A DNA stretch of 64,000 bases, from the sequence record PV805632.1; one strand, written 5' to 3'. Under the pieces are notes generated by a model. It saw only the letters and a program-made list of their open reading frames with translations, did not search any database and had not been told where the DNA came from. This DNA is from a phage. This document shows positions 1,318 through 34,523 of this stretch, piece after piece; position 1 is the stretch's first letter; the number at the start of each line of letters is the position of its first letter. The position numbers and the translations under genes are program-made.

Positions 1318-1422
1318 AACTCAGCGATAAACTAAGTTTAACTTTTAGGGGCTTTTCGACGAAGAGTCACTAAAACTTAAACGTAAACAGAAGCAGATAA
1401 CTTAGAGTAAGGAGTAATCAAG

Positions 1423-1722
1423 ATGCGTACACTATGTAACCGTTATAATCCAACCGGACTGATTAACATCATGGCCTTATATGGTAGCAAAATGACTTAT
1501 GGTGCTCGTTGGCAAGTGTCTGTAGAAGACAAGAATGGCAAATGTCATGACCACTACTTCGTAGCTAAGCCTACTCGTAAACAAATCCGTAAACTTCACA
1601 AAGTACGTAAGCATTACTTACTAAGTAAATGCTACGAATGTGGCAAAAGGATAGAACTAGGTAAAGAATTTACTTTTGATGATCTCAACTATGCTCACAA
1701 TAACTGCTTAGGAACTAAATAA
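1423..1722 (+). CDS. small Cys-rich protein (possible zinc ribbon), 99 aa
   Basis: ORF track; GGAG RBS (taaGGAGtaatcaag) before ATG; C..C/H..C..C spacing. Confidence 0.5.
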   Translation: MRTLCNRYNPTGLINIMALYGSKMTYGARWQVSVEDKNGKCHDHYFVAKPTRKQIRKLHKVRKHYLLSKCYECGKRIELGKEFTFDDLNYAHNNCLGTK

Positions 1723-1723
1723 A

Positions 1724-2128
1724 ATGACTACTCATAAAATTGTAAAAAGCTGGACTACTGAAGCTGGTTTATCTGCTGTAATCCTGCTAGTAAATGATGG
1801 TTCTCACCATTGTGGTTACGTAGCATTGCCTGCTGATTTAGCAGACAAAGACTTTATTAATTATGATCCAGAAGAATCCATTTCTGTTCATGGTGGTGTT
1901 ACCTATCAAGATGCACTTCCTCAATTAGAGGATAAAATCGCTATCGGTTTTGATTGTGCTCATCACGGTGACCTCATGAAATGCCCTGAGAAGTACAAAG
2001 GTACTCCTCTGGAAGGACTGCGCATGTATTCAGAAGGTGTATGGCGAGATGAGCAATATTGCACCAATGAGTGTGAGTCTATGGCTAAACAACTAATGGC
2101 AATGTTGCCTAAACAACTAGAAGGATAA
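1724..2128 (+). CDS. hypothetical protein (134 aa)
   Basis: ORF track; starts 2 nt after previous stop. Confidence 0.5.
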   Translation: MTTHKIVKSWTTEAGLSAVILLVNDGSHHCGYVALPADLADKDFINYDPEESISVHGGVTYQDALPQLEDKIAIGFDCAHHGDLMKCPEKYKGTPLEGLRMYSEGVWRDEQYCTNECESMAKQLMAMLPKQLEG

Positions 2129-2998: not shown

Positions 2999-3216
2999 TG
3001 TACTCAAACGATTATGGTATATGCCCAGTCTGTAAGAAAGGACGTGGAGTTGCCAATCATAAGCGTTGTAGTCGTATATTGCAGAAACAACGGAACCAGA
3101 AAGAATGGTCTAAGGTGCTGGAAAATCAGCATAAAGAAGAGAATCAACAAATGGCTGTTAGGGCATCTACTCAACGTATTCGCCGTATTAACTATATACA
3201 AGGATACCAAAAGTGA
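2995..3216 (+). CDS. small basic protein with CxxC/HxxC motif (73 aa)
   Basis: ORF track; ATGATG overlap with upstream stop. Confidence 0.45.
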   Translation: MMYSNDYGICPVCKKGRGVANHKRCSRILQKQRNQKEWSKVLENQHKEENQQMAVRASTQRIRRINYIQGYQK

Positions 3217-3470
3217 TTATTACATTCCCTGTAACTAAATCATTTAACTATATGGGACAAACTATTGAAGTCCCATTATGGGTTAAATATGTAGCCTTAT
3301 TACCTCGACCACAGAAGAGTAAGAATGCCTCACTAATTGGATTTAGTAGAAAGCCTAAGCTAACCGAAAACTGTATTTGGAAGTCTAGTGGTAGACAAGA
3401 GGAAATTGGTTTTTGTGACTATGTACCTCAACCAAATACAGTATACCTAACCCTGGAGAAAGTAGAGTGA
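3213..3470 (+). CDS. hypothetical protein (85 aa)
   Basis: ORF track; coupled to neighbours. Confidence 0.4.
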   Translation: MIITFPVTKSFNYMGQTIEVPLWVKYVALLPRPQKSKNASLIGFSRKPKLTENCIWKSSGRQEEIGFCDYVPQPNTVYLTLEKVE

Positions 3471-3781
3471 ATAATATTGTAGTAGTACATGATAGTACAT
3501 TTACTGATGTAGATAAGATGATGCGTAATATTGATTATGTATCTCAGACCAGTAAAGCATTTAACGAAGAGTTCACTATTTACTGTGAACCAGAGTCACC
3601 ACTGGTTCCTGTATTAAAAGAAGCTGGTCTACCGTTCTCTACAAAGAACTTCCCAGAGGAACCAGAGTATATGATTACATTCATATATGACTTACATGAT
3701 GGATCTCCTGCCAGTGAACTAGCTATGAACCAGTGGAGTAGTAAACGTCCTGTATATGCTTTCCAGGTACTCAAACCATGA
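3467..3781 (+). CDS. hypothetical protein (104 aa)
   Basis: ORF track; 4-nt overlap coupling. Confidence 0.5.
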   Translation: MNNIVVVHDSTFTDVDKMMRNIDYVSQTSKAFNEEFTIYCEPESPLVPVLKEAGLPFSTKNFPEEPEYMITFIYDLHDGSPASELAMNQWSSKRPVYAFQVLKP

Positions 3782-4799: not shown

Positions 4800-5615
4800 A
4801 TGTACTCATCTATCGAACATCAGAAGCAACTCGAAGTACTATTCAATAAAAATCAGCTCCTGCCAAGGATGCGAAAAGAGTTCGAGGACTCCAAAGAAAT
4901 TGACTTTAAGGCATTCGCTGCCTATTTAGAAATTGATTATAAGCTGCTCATTGATGCAATGGTGCAGATTGCCCTACATAAACGTGCTGACATCCAGACT
5001 ATGATTGGCTCCCTCATGAGCCACTCAGATGATGCTCAGTACATCGCTGACTGTCTGTATAAGATGGCAGAGAATGACTGTTTCAACTATGACCCTACTA
5101 TCGACAAATTCGGTGTTATCTATGAGATTAGTGAAGATGTTCAGATGGAACTGGAAGCATTCCAGTATCCATTACCTATCGTAAGTGCTCCTAATCCTGT
5201 CAGAACTAACAGGGATACTGGTTATTACCAGACTAAAGGAAGCATCATCCTCAAGAAGAACCATCATGAGATGGATGTCTGCCTTGACCACATCAACCGT
5301 ATGAACAATCAACGTCTCTGTGTTAACTGGGACGTTGCTAACTATGTAAAAGACTCTCGTCCTAACATGGATAAACCCAAAGAGGGTGAAACCCGTCAGG
5401 ACTATGAGAAACGAGTTAAAGCCTTTGAGAAGTACAGTCGTACTGCTAAGGAAGTAATGGAGTTAGTGACTCAGGAAGGTAATAACTTCTCACTAGCACA
5501 TAAGTACGATAAGAGAGGGAGAACCTATGCCTGTGGTTACCACATTAACTATGCGGGAACCTCTTATAACAAAGCAGTCATAGAGTTCGCAGATAAAGAG
5601 CTTGTGGAGGACTAA
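4800..5615 (+). CDS. phage RNA polymerase II, small subunit (N4 gp15-like), 271 aa
   Basis: size and position match the N4 two-subunit T7-like RNAP II (about 269 + 404 aa); partner gene downstream carries the catalytic motifs. Confidence 0.6.
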   Translation: MYSSIEHQKQLEVLFNKNQLLPRMRKEFEDSKEIDFKAFAAYLEIDYKLLIDAMVQIALHKRADIQTMIGSLMSHSDDAQYIADCLYKMAENDCFNYDPTIDKFGVIYEISEDVQMELEAFQYPLPIVSAPNPVRTNRDTGYYQTKGSIILKKNHHEMDVCLDHINRMNNQRLCVNWDVANYVKDSRPNMDKPKEGETRQDYEKRVKAFEKYSRTAKEVMELVTQEGNNFSLAHKYDKRGRTYACGYHINYAGTSYNKAVIEFADKELVED

Positions 5616-6229
5616 TGAAAATGTGCAAAGACTGTGGAGAAGTTAAAGACCTCTCCCAGTTTGTACCTAAAGCATCCTGCACAGACGGCTACGAAGTACG
5701 CTGCCGTAGTTGCAGGGTACTCAAATACAATAAAGCTGATCCAGTTAAGATGTTTAAAAAGACATATATCTCTCAGGTGAACCACTCTGTAACGAGAGGT
5801 CATCCACCACCAGCTTATAGTCTGGAAGAGTTATATGACTGGCTGGATAACCAGCCAAACATTCATGAACTATGGGATGCTTACGTCACCAACAACTATG
5901 CTAAGGACTTAAAACCATCAATCGACCGCATAGATGACCTTAAGCCGTATACTCTTGATAACATTCAGTTAATGACGTGGAAAGAGAATAGGAACAAAGG
6001 TGCCAAGAGCAAAAAAGAAGGTGTTATTGGGAAGCATAAACCAGTGATTGCCTACCACTTGGATGGCTCAATCTATAAAGAATTTGTTAGTACCATTGAA
6101 GCTGCTAGACATGTGTCAGGCAGAGCATGGGGAATCACCACGGTAGCTGATGGCATACCAGTAAAGGATGGAAGGGGTAAGCTCTACAATCCTAAAACAT
6201 ACAAAGGCTACATCTGGGCCTGGAAATAA
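5615..6229 (+). CDS. HNH homing endonuclease with C-terminal IENR1/NUMOD-like DNA-binding motif (204 aa)
   Basis: N-terminal Cys cluster CKDCG...CRSC; HNH-like core IDRIDDLKPYTLDNIQLMTWKENRNKG; C-terminal KPV...F.S..EAARH..G.....GYIW motif typical of intron-encoded nuclease repeats. Confidence 0.6.
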   Translation: MKMCKDCGEVKDLSQFVPKASCTDGYEVRCRSCRVLKYNKADPVKMFKKTYISQVNHSVTRGHPPPAYSLEELYDWLDNQPNIHELWDAYVTNNYAKDLKPSIDRIDDLKPYTLDNIQLMTWKENRNKGAKSKKEGVIGKHKPVIAYHLDGSIYKEFVSTIEAARHVSGRAWGITTVADGIPVKDGRGKLYNPKTYKGYIWAWK

Positions 6230-6270
6230 TCCATTAAGCAGGGCTTACGCCCAAGAAGCGGAGAAATATC

Positions 6271-7488
6271 ATGCAATTACTTACTGCTCGCGAATATTTG
6301 AAAGTAGACATCGCTAATTCTTATGGTCTGGATAAGAAGACATGGGATGAACGTATTAGCTGGTTCGATGAGAACGAAGCTAACCTGCTTAATCTGGTAG
6401 ATGAAGCTGAAGAATCTGCACTGTTCTATGCAGGTGTAAACGCATGGAAAGATATGAAAGCTGGTAAGCCTATCGGTTATGCCGTAGCTCTGGATGCTAC
6501 ATCATCTGGTTTGCAGTTACTGGCTTGCCTGACTGGTGACCGTTCTGCTGCTGAACTGTGTAACGTAGTTAACTACATGGGAGAGAATGGTAAGCCATTA
6601 CGTCGTGATGCTTATACAGTTATCTATCACAAGATGCTGGACATCCTTGGTGAAGCATCCCGTATTAAACGTAGTGATACTAAGCAGGCAGTTATGACTG
6701 CATTCTATGGTTCAGAAGCTAAGCCTAAAGAAGTATTCGGTGAAGGTATCCGTCTCAAAACTTTTGAGAATGTAATGGAAACAGTTGCTAGTGGACCTTG
6801 GGCACTGAACAAGTTCTTACTGCAATGTGGTAACCCGGATGCTAACCGTTACGTATGGGTACTGCCTGACAACTTCCATGCTGTCATTAAGGTCATGGTT
6901 CCGGAAGTACAGACTGTTAACTTCTTAGGTAAGCCTTTCGACATCACCCGTATGGTTCAGGGTACTGAAGAGAAGACTCGTATGCTCTCTGCTAACATCA
7001 CCCACTCTATTGATGGGATGGTGGTACGTGAGATGCTGCGTCGCTGTAACTTCAACATGAACCAGGTGAACTATATTAAGTCCCTCTGTGAAGGAACCAG
7101 TGAGTATATGCTGGGTACTAGCGAGAATTACGATATGGTTAGTCAACTGTGGCATAACTATGAGAAATCAGGATTCCTGTCTACCCGTATCTTTGATTAT
7201 CTGGATTCTGACTCAATTAAACTGGTTGATACAGATGTAATCATGGCTATGCTTAATACCATGCCTAAGAAACCATTCCCTGTAATGACTGTACACGACT
7301 GCTTCCGTTGTCACCCTAACTATGGCAATGACTTGCGTCGTCAATACAATCAGATTCTGTCTGACATTGCTAAGAGTGATCTACTGGGCTTCATCCTGTC
7401 TCAGGTACTGGGGCAAGAGTTCTCTGCTGGTAAGCTGGATGACAGCCTCTGGCAGGACATTCTTGAAACAGACTATGCATTAAGTTAA
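6271..7488 (+). CDS. phage RNA polymerase II, catalytic subunit (N4 gp16-like, T7-like RNAP), 405 aa
   Basis: T7-RNAP-like motif A (ALDATSSGLQ), motif B (RSDTKQAVMTAFYG) and motif C (TVHDCF). Confidence 0.7.
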   Translation: MQLLTAREYLKVDIANSYGLDKKTWDERISWFDENEANLLNLVDEAEESALFYAGVNAWKDMKAGKPIGYAVALDATSSGLQLLACLTGDRSAAELCNVVNYMGENGKPLRRDAYTVIYHKMLDILGEASRIKRSDTKQAVMTAFYGSEAKPKEVFGEGIRLKTFENVMETVASGPWALNKFLLQCGNPDANRYVWVLPDNFHAVIKVMVPEVQTVNFLGKPFDITRMVQGTEEKTRMLSANITHSIDGMVVREMLRRCNFNMNQVNYIKSLCEGTSEYMLGTSENYDMVSQLWHNYEKSGFLSTRIFDYLDSDSIKLVDTDVIMAMLNTMPKKPFPVMTVHDCFRCHPNYGNDLRRQYNQILSDIAKSDLLGFILSQVLGQEFSAGKLDDSLWQDILETDYALS

Positions 7489-7496
7489 TAAACTGG

Positions 7497-7530
7497 CCTC
7501 ATACCTTCGGGTATGGGGCTTTTATTTTTT
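7497..7530 (+). terminator. intrinsic terminator (CCTCATACC-TTCG-GGTATGGGG + TTTTATTTTTT)
   Basis: hairpin plus T-run read directly. Confidence 0.7.
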
Positions 7531-7547
7531 GCTTGGAGGTAGTCAAC

Positions 7548-7730
7548 ATGACAGACATCTATGATGTTATTACTAAAACCGTACTGATAGTTTTATCTGC
7601 TATTGTGATATTCACTATAGCCAATGTTCATAAATCCAAGTTTTCCTATTGCTACTATGGAGCATATTCTGCCGGATGTTTTGTATTAGCCGGTTGGATA
7701 GCTTACTGGATTTACTGCATCATCAACTAG
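7548..7730 (+). CDS. small membrane protein (60 aa)
   Basis: ORF track 7533..7730; ATG 7548 preferred, GGAGG 8 nt upstream; one hydrophobic helix. Confidence 0.4.
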   Translation: MTDIYDVITKTVLIVLSAIVIFTIANVHKSKFSYCYYGAYSAGCFVLAGWIAYWIYCIIN

Positions 7731-9731: not shown

Positions 9732-10784
9732 ATGGCGAGCATTGACTCCTTGACTGTATGTAATACACGTCAAGCCCGTAACTTTATTATCCGTGCCTTG
9801 CAAGCAGGTAACGTACCGTTCCTGACTTCATCACCGGGTATGGGTAAGTCTGCAATTATTCGTTCTATTGCAGAAGAATTTGGTATGAAGCTGATTGACC
9901 ATCGTCTGTCTACTTCTGCCCCGGAAGACTTATCTGGTCTACCATTCCGTAATGGTGACCGTGCAGAGTTTATTCCATTTGCTGACTTATTCCCTATCGA
10001 GGGTGACGAAGTACCAGAAGGCTATAATGGCTGGCTCCTGTTCCTTGATGAGTTCAACTCAGCTAAAAAAGAAGTAGTAGCTGCTGCATACAAACTGATT
10101 CTAGACCGTATGACCGGGCAGAAAAAACTTCACCCTAATGTGATGATTATCTGTGCCGGTAATAAAGCTACTGACCGTGCTATCGTTAACCCACTGGGTA
10201 CTGCAATGCAGTCTCGCGTTGTCCACTTCGAAATGGAACTTAACTTCGACATTTTTGTTGAAGACGTAATGATTCCTCAAGAATGGGATGAGCGTCTGGT
10301 TGCATTCTTACATGCTAACCCTGGTTATCTGCACGACTTCGACCCTGCCCATAAGAACAAAACATTCTGTTGTCCACGTACCTGGGACTTTGTTAACAAA
10401 GACCTCAAGAACCGACCAGAAGGTGCTTTGCCTGATGAAGATTCTATCTACTATGCAGGCCACGTTACTGCTGGTAAGGCTACAGAGTTTGTTCAGTTCA
10501 CTCAGGTATACAATCGTATGATTACGATTGATAAGGTAGTCAAAGACCCTTTGGGCTGTGCACTACCAGAGGATAATAACCTGTGCTGGGCTACCGTTAA
10601 CCACCTGGCTAACAAGACCACTGAAGATAACTTCGTTGATGTACTTAAGTACATTGAACGCTTTAAAACGTTCACCCATAAGATTCTGTACTTCCGTACA
10701 GCAGGCAAAGCATTACCAGAAATTCAGGCTACCCCTGAATGGCGTAAAGCTGCTGCCAATATATCTCGTTACATTCACGGATAA
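9732..10784 (+). CDS. MoxR-like AAA+ ATPase (350 aa)
   Basis: Walker A SPGMGKSA, Walker B LLFLDEF; paired with VWA gene downstream. Confidence 0.6.
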   Translation: MASIDSLTVCNTRQARNFIIRALQAGNVPFLTSSPGMGKSAIIRSIAEEFGMKLIDHRLSTSAPEDLSGLPFRNGDRAEFIPFADLFPIEGDEVPEGYNGWLLFLDEFNSAKKEVVAAAYKLILDRMTGQKKLHPNVMIICAGNKATDRAIVNPLGTAMQSRVVHFEMELNFDIFVEDVMIPQEWDERLVAFLHANPGYLHDFDPAHKNKTFCCPRTWDFVNKDLKNRPEGALPDEDSIYYAGHVTAGKATEFVQFTQVYNRMITIDKVVKDPLGCALPEDNNLCWATVNHLANKTTEDNFVDVLKYIERFKTFTHKILYFRTAGKALPEIQATPEWRKAAANISRYIHG

Positions 10785-10791
10785 TCACAAC

Positions 10792-11967
10792 ATGAACCAG
10801 ATACCTCAGCACACACTTAGTGATGAACAACTCATGCGTGAGTATGACCGTATTCAGGCGCAGGCATTTCTTGGACGCAGTGCAGCGTTTTTTGGTTCAT
10901 TGCTGTGTAGTCTTAAGTTCTCATGGAAACGTGAGGGCTGTCCCACTGCATGTACCGATGGGATAGAACTCCATTTCAACCCAGACTTCTTTATCTGGAT
11001 GTGCCCTGATGCAAGAGAAACGGTGCTAATGCACGAACTCTGGCATGTGGCATACCTACATGGCATCCGTTGTGGAAGCCGTGACCCAGAAGTCTGGAAC
11101 CAGGCATGTGACCACTTCATTAACCTTCAGTTAGAGGAAGATGGTTACAAGTTCACTGGTATCGACGAAGGCATTTGCAAAGACCCTCAATATAAAGGAT
11201 GGGTCGAAGAAGACATCTACGATGACCTGATGAAGAACCCTCAGAAAAGGCAGAAGCCGTCAGGGGGTGCTGGAGCAGGTCTTGCTGGCGACATGAAAGC
11301 TCCCTCTTCGGGGCAGTCCCAGGGTGCTGTTGTCAACAACGTAGTACGTGCAATGCAAAGCCAGAAGATGGCTGGTGGAATGATGCCCGGTAAAGGTGCT
11401 GGTCGTATGGAAGAGGTTATTACCCAATTCCTTAAACCAGTGGTTCCTTGGCAGGAAGTCCTGCTGAACTTCTTTACCGACATTGATGGTACACACTATA
11501 CGTGGGCCAGACCTAACCGTCGTTTCACTGACGTCTATCTACCTTCTCTGGAAGATGATGAAGGACGCTTACGACACTTAGCCTACTTTGAGGATGTATC
11601 TGGTTCTATTAGTAGTGCTGACTCTCTGCGTTTTAACTCAGAGGTTGCCTACGTTAAGAGCCAGTTCAATCCTAAGAAGATGACCCTAATTACCTTCGAC
11701 GATATTATCCAAGAAGAAATAGACATCACTGAAGAAGATACTTTTGAAGAGATTAAGATTACTGGTCGTGGTGGTACAAACCTTGAACCAGTGCGTGAAT
11801 GGATCATTAAGAATAAGCCAACCGCTGCAATCATATTCTCCGATATGTATGTTCGTCCTATGGAAGAATTGCCATTTGATATCCCTATCATCTGGTGTGT
11901 TCTGAATAATCCTAATGCTACCGTACCTTTTGGGGAGGTAGTTCATATCCCTAAAGGAATGAAATAA
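10792..11967 (+). CDS. VWA-domain protein with N-terminal HExxH metallopeptidase-like motif (392 aa)
   Basis: HELWH motif; MIDAS-like DVSGSISS; ORF-track ORF 10558..11967 trimmed to first ATG after the upstream stop. Confidence 0.55.
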   Translation: MNQIPQHTLSDEQLMREYDRIQAQAFLGRSAAFFGSLLCSLKFSWKREGCPTACTDGIELHFNPDFFIWMCPDARETVLMHELWHVAYLHGIRCGSRDPEVWNQACDHFINLQLEEDGYKFTGIDEGICKDPQYKGWVEEDIYDDLMKNPQKRQKPSGGAGAGLAGDMKAPSSGQSQGAVVNNVVRAMQSQKMAGGMMPGKGAGRMEEVITQFLKPVVPWQEVLLNFFTDIDGTHYTWARPNRRFTDVYLPSLEDDEGRLRHLAYFEDVSGSISSADSLRFNSEVAYVKSQFNPKKMTLITFDDIIQEEIDITEEDTFEEIKITGRGGTNLEPVREWIIKNKPTAAIIFSDMYVRPMEELPFDIPIIWCVLNNPNATVPFGEVVHIPKGMK

Positions 11968-25932: not shown

Positions 25933-26216
25933 TGACTAAGCTCTCCGGTGGTCTTAATAACTACTATGTAGTTTCAATTAAGAATCCCCAACGGAAAGAG
26001 CAAGAGCCATATCAAGCAGAGTGTGAGGATATTATCCAAGCACTGGGCATGACCTTCGATGAAGGTTGTGCCTTTAAAGCTCTATGGCGAAATGCTGCTG
26101 CCCGTATGGGTAATGGTAAACCTGGCAACTCTTCAGTGTACGACTCAGAGAAGATTGTGCATTATGCCAATCGAATATTGAAAAAGGCTTACAATGAAAG
26201 TAACCAACAATCATGA
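25932..26216 (+). CDS. hypothetical protein (94 aa)
   Basis: ORF track. Confidence 0.45.
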   Translation: MTKLSGGLNNYYVVSIKNPQRKEQEPYQAECEDIIQALGMTFDEGCAFKALWRNAAARMGNGKPGNSSVYDSEKIVHYANRILKKAYNESNQQS

Positions 26217-31982: not shown

Positions 31983-32213
31983 TCTGGTAGGTGGCTCAGA
32001 AGCTGCTGCTAGGTGTGGTAGTGTTTATAGTCCTGATGCTACTACTGGTCAGGATTATAGACGTGTCGGCTCCATACATAGCTTTTATCATCACTGTCAT
32101 TATCCTGTGGAAATGCAGTGGTAAACACGGTGGTGACAAGCCGCCAGAATAACAACAACCGAACCAGTGGATTGGAATACTCTCCCCAGTCCATTGGTTC
32201 AACCGAGGCTAAT

Positions 32214-32384
32214 ATGAACAAATTTACTATTCACTGGCTCAATGGAATAGTTAGTTCTTTCATGGGTGGGGAACCTGTTGAAGGAAACAAAGCATTCCAC
32301 ATTGATTCAGAAGGCTGCAAAATCTTAGTACCATACGCTTGGTATAAGAATGGTGAAGTTGAAGCATTGAAAAAGAGCAGTTAA
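32214..32384 (+). CDS. hypothetical small protein (56 aa)
   Basis: ORF track 32118..32384; ATG 32214 with CCGAGG RBS preferred. Confidence 0.35.
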   Translation: MNKFTIHWLNGIVSSFMGGEPVEGNKAFHIDSEGCKILVPYAWYKNGEVEALKKSS

Positions 32385-33860: not shown

Positions 33861-33898
33861 AAGAAAGCCCCTCATTTGAGGGGCTTTCTTATTTATAC
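33861..33898. terminator. bidirectional intrinsic terminator (13-bp stem AAGAAAGCCCCTC / GAGGGGCTTTCTT)
   Basis: long perfect stem with T-runs on both strands, between convergent + and - units. Confidence 0.7.
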
Positions 33899-34495
33899 AG
33901 GATTTACTGTTTGAAATACCCTGACAGATACCTTAGTGAGTGTAATAGTTTGTCCACTAACGTTATGCATACCTAATTGTATGCCATTGACCATAAATGG
34001 GTCAGTGCTGCCCATGGTATATGTTGCAAGGTTTACTTCCTCGTTGCTTATATCATTACCCTGGAATTTAGAACTAAAAGCAGAACCCCTTATAGTTGTT
34101 CCATTGGGTCGTCTTGTTTGTGTTCTCCACTCTCTAACTGTCCCATCATCCCCGGCAATACTACCAGTAATCCGTACTACGAAAATTACTTGTGTATTGC
34201 CTTCTCTAGCAGGGAAGAGTAGATTGTTATCTAATATAGTAGTACCAGCAGTTCCTGCCGGATCCTTAGTTAAGCCTTCCAAACTAAAATAATTGAACCA
34301 GCTTGTATCAGTGATTGTCTGGCTTCCAGCCCAATCCCATATATCTAATAAAAAAGGATTTGGCAATTCTTTTGCCAAATCCTCGTCCGTTTTGGATGCA
34401 AGTATGCTTTTCCCCTTGTCTCCGATAAGGGTCATTCCACCCATAACCAAAGGCATTGCATCAAAACCCTGATCGTATTTGTCTTTAATGGTCAT
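33893..34495 (-). CDS. hypothetical protein downstream of the virion RNAP gene (200 aa)
   Basis: ORF track 33893..34531; start moved to ATG 34495 (MTIKDKYDQ) with GGGGA RBS, since 34531 lies inside the terminator hairpin. Confidence 0.5.
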   Translation of the reverse strand: MTIKDKYDQGFDAMPLVMGGMTLIGDKGKSILASKTDEDLAKELPNPFLLDIWDWAGSQTITDTSWFNYFSLEGLTKDPAGTAGTTILDNNLLFPAREGNTQVIFVVRITGSIAGDDGTVREWRTQTRRPNGTTIRGSAFSSKFQGNDISNEEVNLATYTMGSTDPFMVNGIQLGMHNVSGQTITLTKVSVRVFQTVNPV

Positions 34496-34523
34496 AAAGT
34501 CCCCGTAGATAATAATAAAAAGA

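Follow-up and report, generated by a model that had tools for sequence, protein, structure and literature searches.

The window analysed here, the whole 64,000-nucleotide stretch of phage sequence record PV805632.1, carries a 204-aa open reading frame between the genes for the small and catalytic subunits of RNAP II (RNAP1 and RNAP2), which raises the questions of what this frame encodes, how it came to lie there, and whether it bears on the origin of a polymerase encoded in two parts. The phage is a Gamaleyavirus (Schitoviridae), an N4-related coliphage collinear with Escherichia phage vB_EcoP_G7C (G7C) at 95–97% across 48 kb. In the region of the locus the identity to G7C is 96.7%, a value that applies to the flanks only; the homology stops at position 5605 and restarts at 6292, i.e. 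exactly around the predicted homing endonuclease gene (HEG).

The interval between the RNAP II subunit genes

The ORF listing of the window places the 204-aa frame at 5615–6229 on the + strand, within the following arrangement:

4800..5615, + strand: RNAP1, RNAP II small subunit gene (N4 gp15 homologue), 271 aa; phrog_2166, E 1e-114
5601–5612, + strand: last four RNAP1 sense codons, CTT GTG GAG GAC; cassette-specific, and including the HEG Shine-Dalgarno sequence
5606–5610, + strand: Shine-Dalgarno sequence GGAGG of the HEG, 4 nt before its ATG, as read from the sequence
5613–5615 and 5615–5617, + strand: RNAP1 stop codon TAA and HEG start codon ATG, with one base in common (TAATG)
5615..6229, + strand: predicted free-standing HEG of type A, 204 aa; phrog_1035, E 1.7e-27
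6230..6270, + strand: native RNAP1–RNAP2 spacer kept 3′ of the HEG, alignable with the spacers of N4 and HEG-free Gamaleyavirus
6271..7488, + strand: RNAP2, RNAP II catalytic subunit gene (N4 gp16 homologue), 405 aa; PF00940, E 1e-14; phrog_2051, E 7e-177
7495..7530, + strand: terminator-like hairpin (7495–7520) and T-run closing the RNAP1–HEG–RNAP2 unit, from a consensus scan only

An earlier note on this DNA had placed the gene between the two subunit genes with an overlap of the upstream stop codon, and had described the subunit genes as adjacent in N4. Both statements hold: the RNAP1 stop and HEG start can be read in the window as GTGGAGGACTAATGAAAATG, and a spacer of 47 bp separates gp15 from gp16 in N4. 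The window RNAP1 shares 99.3% amino acid identity with G7C gp15, and in junction alignments its 3′ end has a column diagnostic of type A and lacks one Asn codon. The HEG is co-oriented with the RNAP II genes, and a consensus scan of the + strand from 4800 to 6271 found nothing that resembles a promoter or terminator, so that the HEG and these genes most likely share one transcript. The overlap of the RNAP1 stop with the HEG start, together with a Shine-Dalgarno sequence inside the last RNAP1 codons, further suggests that the HEG is translationally coupled to RNAP1.

The spacer retained downstream contains the box TCCATTAAGCA, a hairpin GGGC-TTAC-GCCC (6241–6252) and the RNAP2 Shine-Dalgarno sequence GGAG (6260–6263); the hairpin is weakly predicted to fold in the window (z –1.3), and more strongly so in PhAPEC7 (z –2.8). 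Since RNAP1 still ends at a stop codon of its own and RNAP2 begins at its own start codon, just as in N4, the HEG lies outside any intron or intein, and a search for an intron around it gave no Rfam match of any family in the window. Its GC content (0.40–0.44) equals that of the flanks, with no compositional anomaly, and other copies of the type A, B or C HEGs described below were absent from the rest of the window.

Domain architecture and the putative active site

That the frame did not arise by chance but is a gene follows from its 110 homologues at E≤1e-5 (best identity 96%), from the 2,254 cluster representatives (clusters at 50% identity) reached by profile search at E≤1e-30, and from a dN/dS of about 0.05 for the type A HEG (0.048–0.069; against two homologues). 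The only precomputed Pfam domains among the 110 homologues are NUMOD1 and I-HmuI_NUMOD-like. Searched alone, the window protein had no match in Pfam (HNH models included) or NCBIfam, and none to NUMOD-type Pfam models at E<0.1, while a single-sequence phmmer search of the PDB returned noise only and a family profile was required. This profile was built from a 37-sequence alignment; residue conservation was taken from a 45-sequence alignment. The profile matched I-HmuI (PDB 1u3e) at E 1.2e-6 over ~140 positions, corresponding to I-HmuI residues 25–171, and PacI at E 0.054, in the latter case covering the N-terminal Zn motif and GVDRSDSFEGYSPQN...CN. In Pfam, NUMOD1 is matched by 17 of the 37 family members and I-HmuI_NUMOD-like by 14. 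An AF2 model of the window protein has a pLDDT of 93.5, and the top two Foldseek matches to it are I-HmuI (probability 1.00) and PacI (probability 0.97). Three domains can be delineated:

5615..5719, + strand: N-terminal Cys4 zinc ribbon (C4, C7, C30, C33; aa 1–35), its four Cys invariant in 45 homologues
5909..6019, + strand: beta-beta-alpha-metal nuclease core (aa 99–135), with the motif PSIDRIDDLKPYTLDNIQLMTWKEN
6038..6226, + strand: C-terminal NUMOD1/I-HmuI-like helix-turn-helix DNA-binding domain (aa 142–204), aligning with I-HmuI residues 120–171

The alignment of the ribbon with the N-terminal Zn motif of PacI is weak (whole-sequence E 0.054, with an i-Evalue of 5.5 for the ribbon stretch), and the C-terminal domain carries a subfamily-specific insertion of ~11 aa. 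The protein possesses the beta-beta-alpha-metal fold of the His-Me finger/HNH superfamily and the I-HmuI-like layout of a nuclease core followed by a NUMOD/helix-turn-helix tail. The earlier description of the product as a free-standing HNH endonuclease with an IENR1-like tail is thus supported by the I-HmuI profile match, the NUMOD matches of family members and Foldseek; the term HNH stands at the level of the superfamily, but not in its canonical sense, given the lack of a Pfam HNH match and the replacement of the general-base His by Arg105. The label endonuclease VII, attached to phrog_1035 and to GenBank homologues, was also considered and rejected as a misnomer: Endonuclease_7 (PF02945), whose Zn site is embedded in the H-N-H core, is matched by one of the 37 members, at E 0.044, and T4 endonuclease VII is absent from the top structural matches.

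Residues invariant in the 45-sequence alignment include C4, C7, C30, C33, S102, Y112, N116 and N125, and D104 and R105 are each conserved at 90% or more; the family core motif reads PSIDRxDDxKPYTLDNIQLMTWKEN. In the profile alignment to I-HmuI, D104 corresponds to D74, R105 to the catalytic H75, and N125 to N96, residues whose roles in I-HmuI are confirmed in PMC12724721. The metal-ligand Asp/Asn pair (D104, N125) and the structural Asn (N116) are therefore all present, but the general-base His expected at the end of the first strand is absent and Arg105 occupies its position; in P0002, a close homologue, residue 105 is a His. In PacI, Asp and Asn hold the metal and an omega-loop Tyr stands in for the absent His (reviewed in PMC5714182 and PMC4081073). 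Invariant Y112 aligns, in the sequence/profile alignment, with the sole Tyr of the PacI loop GVDRSDSFEGYSPQN. A second Cys4 site of the PacI type is absent: neither the core nor the sequence beyond it contains a Cys (LMTWKEN, against ACFICN in PacI). With D104 and N125 as putative metal ligands and Y112 in a predicted omega-loop, the pattern resembles a PacI-type active site. The HEG product is a histidine-free variant that combines an I-HmuI-like body with a putative PacI-like active site.

Junction states and the history of the site

The RNAP1–RNAP2 interval was studied in 16 Gamaleyavirus loci of about 60 records, and falls into the following states:

Type A: window, metagenomic contig ENA ERZ27245987 (L013; its copy 96% identical to the window HEG in amino acids), and pSb-1 and HK2 (75% in amino acids); 204-aa HEG, spacer 655–671 bp
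Type B: G7C, ST4, PGN829.1, Bas96 and Moonfish; 193-aa HEG, a paralogue from the type A family and 33% identical to it (E 5e-30); spacer 584 bp in G7C, Bas96, PGN829.1 and Moonfish, with ST4 also having the type B gene
Type C1: Mimir124 and PW8; canonical HNH_3-AP2 gene of 507 bp and 168 aa, unrelated to A and B
Type C2: UE-S5a; canonical HNH_3-AP2 gene of 507 bp and 168 aa, unrelated to A and B
HEG-free: PhAPEC7, Bp4, St11Ph5, KKP3715 and E20; small ORFs belonging to unrelated PHROGs, spacer 206–438 bp

The RNAP1–RNAP2 junction is a hot spot for HEGs, with at least four types. Relative to N4 and several close relatives the window HEG is an insertion, as the earlier note had supposed, and the comparison of the locus across relatives that it proposed found insert-free alleles; it is therefore not the case that all close relatives carry the same gene at this position. 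We also considered the small ORFs of the HEG-free spacers as HEG remnants, and rejected them as such: they have no tblastn similarity to type A or B and belong to PHROGs of unknown function.

The junction TAATGAAA is common to type A, C1 and C2 carriers. Type A retains the native spacer of ~40 nt (box, small hairpin and Shine-Dalgarno sequence), which is also recognisable in N4; in type B the whole native spacer is replaced and the HEG abuts RNAP2 (TAAGATG). Type B is always accompanied by eight linked substitutions among the 54 nt that open RNAP2, and the first ~45 nt of the window RNAP2 form a mosaic of type-A/HEG-free-like and G7C-like sequence. A search for the target site among carrier-specific flank substitutions of type A yielded one diagnostic column only. 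In the mosaic start of RNAP2 and the sharply bounded cassette one may see a trace, solely an indirect one, of the predicted homing.

Divergence at the locus is uneven. Between the window and HK2 the HEG has 72.7% nucleotide identity and saturated dS, versus dS of 0.42–0.60 in the flanking RNAP1 and RNAP2. The low dN/dS indicates purifying selection on the HEG, and the contrast in dS a history that it does not share with the genes beside it. A free-standing HEG is recognised by its variable presence at a single site among close relatives and by such a separate history. Both are found here, and together with purifying selection they lead to the reading of the gene as a free-standing homing endonuclease cassette. 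A polymorphic locus, a mosaic and a divergence contrast between HEG and flanks are what would be expected if a functional cassette is exchanged horizontally and takes short co-converted tracts along with it.

The association extends beyond the genus. In five divergent N4-like metagenomic contigs, HEG homologues (51–59% identity) lie 41–47 nt 3′ of RNAP1 homologues that are themselves 38–51% identical to the window RNAP1, and RNAP2 follows after 0–10 small ORFs. Remoter family members occur at other loci, e.g. in a crAss-like contig. In the Rhodovirinae phage EE36P1, a gene overlaps the RNAP1 stop; it was tried as a homologue of type A or B and rejected, being an HNH_3 gene unrelated to the window HEG. 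Group I introns with HEGs interrupt RNAP2 of Moonfish and of one metagenomic contig (RF00028, 91–96 bits), and with the junction HEGs they mark the RNAP II operon as a recurrent target of selfish nucleases. The five HNH genes of G7C had already been noted in 2013 (PMC3670811), and a classification of free-standing phage HNH enzymes from 2025 (PMC12724721) includes PacI-like and I-HmuI-like ones.

The earlier note also raised the possibility that the gene marks the place where an ancestral single-chain RNAP was split. Such a split of a T7-like RNAP by an HEG in the N4 lineage was proposed by Amgarten et al. 2017, who reported HNH genes between RNAP1 and RNAP2 of G7C and EE36P1 (PMC5418858). Apart from being in print (PMC5418858), the idea that the HEG is a relic of the event that produced RNAP1 and RNAP2 in an N4-like ancestor gains from two observations, namely that the two subunits, RNAP1 and RNAP2, align with adjoining and non-overlapping stretches of single-chain RNAP profiles (phrog_414, positions 227–423 and 429–595), and that HEGs sit at the junction both in Gamaleyavirus and in the distant EE36P1. 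However, these junction HEGs come from unrelated families and have different junctions, they are missing from N4 and many relatives, and their divergence greatly exceeds that of the flanking genes; nothing links the window copy to an event older than the whole family. The genes are split in all N4-like phages, HEG-free N4 included, and at least four patchy HEG types occupy the site. The phrog_2166 profile covers the junction, a hint that unsplit RNAP II genes may exist. Saturated HEG dS against flank values of 0.4–0.6, with HEGs that are so varied and patchy and younger than the genes around them, speaks for repeated invasions in recent times rather than for a relic of the ancestor. For the window copy this part of the earlier note is not borne out: it is unlikely to be a relic of the RNAP split, and we regard the descent of the HEG from that event as improbable in the extreme.

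A probable homing cassette and its known counterparts

We consider it highly probable that the frame at 5615–6229 is a free-standing HEG inserted precisely at the RNAP1 stop codon of a G7C-like N4-related coliphage. In such a scheme, the HEG would be expressed early, together with the RNAP II genes. During mixed infection, the enzyme would nick or cut an HEG-less allele at or near the RNAP1–RNAP2 junction, and recombinational repair from the HEG-bearing genome would then transfer the cassette to the recipient along with some tens of adjoining bases. Catalysis may proceed by a one-metal mechanism, with the metal ion on D104 and N125 and with Tyr112 acting as general base or nucleophile in place of the missing His, as proposed for PacI. 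The window phage itself could have arisen when a type-A cassette displaced type B, or entered an empty site, in a G7C-like backbone. A broader proposal, which we advance tentatively and regard as possible but somewhat doubtful, is that the HEG belongs to a very large phage homing nuclease family, not covered by Pfam, in which an I-HmuI-like body carries a PacI-like, His-free and Tyr-dependent site, and that subfamily A is specialised on the RNAP1 3′ end across divergent N4-like phages.

Two other readings concern what the protein does at present. It might be a dead ex-nuclease, domesticated as a sequence-specific DNA binder (e.g. a regulator of the RNAP II operon or of middle transcription) and kept for the benefit of the phage. 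R105 in place of the catalytic His, strong purifying selection and a conserved place beside RNAP1 in divergent N4-like contigs are all compatible with this, and His-Me fingers without catalysis have precedent, e.g. SMAD MH1 (PMC5714182). However, a mere DNA binder would have no need of D104, N125 and Tyr112, which are conserved in the 45 sequences; the gene appears dispensable, being missing from N4 and many Gamaleyaviruses, unrelated canonical HNH_3 HEGs take the same nucleotide position, and the close homologue P0002 has the His at 105. We therefore judge domestication to be quite unlikely. An active nuclease whose main role is other than homing, whether host DNA degradation, phage exclusion, anti-defence or junction resolution in the manner of endonuclease VII, seems to us unlikely as well. 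Its appeal lies in the endonuclease VII labels of the pSb-1 and rV5 homologues in GenBank, in the phrog_1035 match, in the early-gene position of the HEG and in the documented marker exclusion by phage HNH enzymes (PMC12724721). Neither the Endonuclease_7 model nor the structural search gave the label meaningful support, though, and an I-HmuI-like tail for sequence-specific DNA binding, swapped cassettes and a patchy occurrence at a single exact position are hallmarks of homing, of which marker exclusion is the same mechanism seen from the side of the phage.

The main value of the finding is as an annotation: it corrects the labels "endonuclease VII" and "hypothetical" on the gene family, and documents the RNAP1–RNAP2 junction of N4-like phages as a recurrent insertion point of HEGs from at least four lineages. 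Genomes that carry, have swapped or are free of the HEG form a natural set for gauging homing and co-conversion. The histidine-free active site offers a modest enzymological lead and, if the family is active, it would provide the first homing endonucleases of the Tyr-type His-Me class with a defined and conserved target in an essential transcription gene. The understanding of N4 RNAP II is unchanged by these findings.

With regard to known systems, the best profile and structural match is I-HmuI, a nicking HNH homing endonuclease of Bacillus phage SPO1; however, I-HmuI has a catalytic His75, lacks an N-terminal Cys4 ribbon and is intron-encoded, whereas the window protein has Arg105 and the ribbon and is encoded by a free-standing gene. 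R.PacI (PDB 3ldy/3m7k), from group 20 of the His-Me fingers, is a restriction enzyme of 142 aa that forms a homodimer and has two Zn sites but lacks a NUMOD tail. The window HEG product is devoid of the second Zn site, and the sequence similarity between the two is marginal (E 0.054). The T4 seg/mob genes and the Skunavirus HNHE sites H1–H11 resemble the window locus in variable presence, in distinct HEGs at one insertion site and in co-conversion of short flanks (PMC12724721); exclusion or homing has been shown experimentally for those HEGs, whereas homing by the window HEG is predicted from sequence. Closer at hand, G7C ORF15.1 (YP_004782142, putative HNH homing endonuclease), the type B representative, shares with the window HEG its locus, genus and three-domain architecture, and its motif PSLDRLDDYKGYSLDN...TN follows the same D-R...Y...N...N pattern. 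It differs in its length of 193 aa, in being 33% identical and in the replacement of the native spacer, which the window HEG keeps. The nearest named counterparts are the type-A orthologues pSb-1 gp54 ("endonuclease VII") and HK2 WYA83887 ("endonuclease"), both of 204 aa, with the identical junction GTGGAGGACTAATGAAAAT and the spacer retained; at 72.5–72.7% nucleotide identity and saturated dS they stand apart from the window HEG, whereas the flanks are ~89–90% identical. Overall, the window HEG adds an allele to a kind of gene, and to a hot spot, that were both known before, and the idea of an HEG-mediated split was already in the literature.

HNH gene sites shared with phage G7C

Alignment to the related phage G7C revealed that four of the five HNH genes annotated in that genome (gp2.1, gp24.1, gp41.1 and gp47.1) are missing from the window, and that the sole G7C HNH site filled here is the RNAP II junction, where the allele of the homing endonuclease gene (HEG) differs from that of G7C. 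The alignment skips the G7C HNH genes at the following points:

window 1337-1349
window 10784-10801
window 26176-26194
window 32179-32221

When the window was compared with the initial 50 kb of the G7C genome, two window segments, 1603-2121 and 33888-34516, had no match there. Among these unmatched segments, the place of G7C gp2.1 is taken by two ORFs:

window 1423..1722, ORF of 99 aa
window 1724..2128, ORF of 134 aa

The RNAP1–RNAP2 junction and its upstream spacer

The phrog_2166 profile (505 positions) is matched at positions 15-320 by RNAP1 (window 4800-5612) and at positions 324-431 by the first ~100 aa of RNAP2 (window 6271-7485), which suggests that some family members may span the junction, being either unsplit or split elsewhere. 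If real, such members would bear on the origin of the RNAP1/RNAP2 split.

The spacer upstream of RNAP2 remains recognisable from N4 to Gamaleyavirus, a degree of conservation seldom seen in intergenic DNA, and comprises a TCCATTAAGCA box, a small hairpin, AAGAAGC and a Shine-Dalgarno sequence:

window 6230-6270, RNAP2 upstream spacer
L004 (compared locus) 1516-1571, RNAP2 upstream spacer
L005 (compared locus) 2503-2549, RNAP2 upstream spacer

In carriers of the type B HEG, the paralogue found at this junction in G7C and others, the spacer is wholly gone, and the RNAP2 gene is still intact and full-length. The RNAP2 entries of two relatives probably contain annotation or sequence errors: in pSb-1 the gene is represented by two overlapping ORFs (L002 2386-3180 and 3147-3602), a split likely due to a frameshift, and in Mimir124 (L028 2568-3812) the annotated start is an upstream ATG within the spacer.

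HEG relatives and RNAP2 introns in other phages

P0002, a homologue from a Logan metagenome with 77% identity to the window HEG, carries SIDHIDD in place of SIDRIDD, positioning a histidine at the equivalent of the canonical general base; judged by sequence, it is a natural R105H variant. Upstream of type-A-like HEGs, a TAGGGTA-loop-TACCCT hairpin followed by AAGGA is conserved in five divergent N4-like contigs, with the most extreme fold z-score (down to −6.6) in L021:

L015 3960-4000, hairpin
L018 3960-4000, hairpin
L019 3460-3500, hairpin
L021 3454-3500, hairpin
L023 3459-3500, hairpin

The hairpin may serve in regulation or in RNA processing, or may belong to the mobile cassette.

An Rfam search of the whole window (1-64000, both strands) returned no family at gathering score, and hence no tRNA or intron matches. 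Group I introns (RF00028; 91 and 96 bits) interrupt RNAP2 in Shigella phage Moonfish (L010) and a Logan SRR10083240 contig (L015), each followed by a HEG:

L010 2769-3012, intron; 3073-3717, HEG
L015 6599-6852, intron; 6914-7600, HEG

RNAP2 appears as split fragments in the corresponding records and gene calls. The intron-following HEG is an HNH_3-AP2 gene in Moonfish and a GIY-YIG/NUMOD3 gene in the metagenomic phage.
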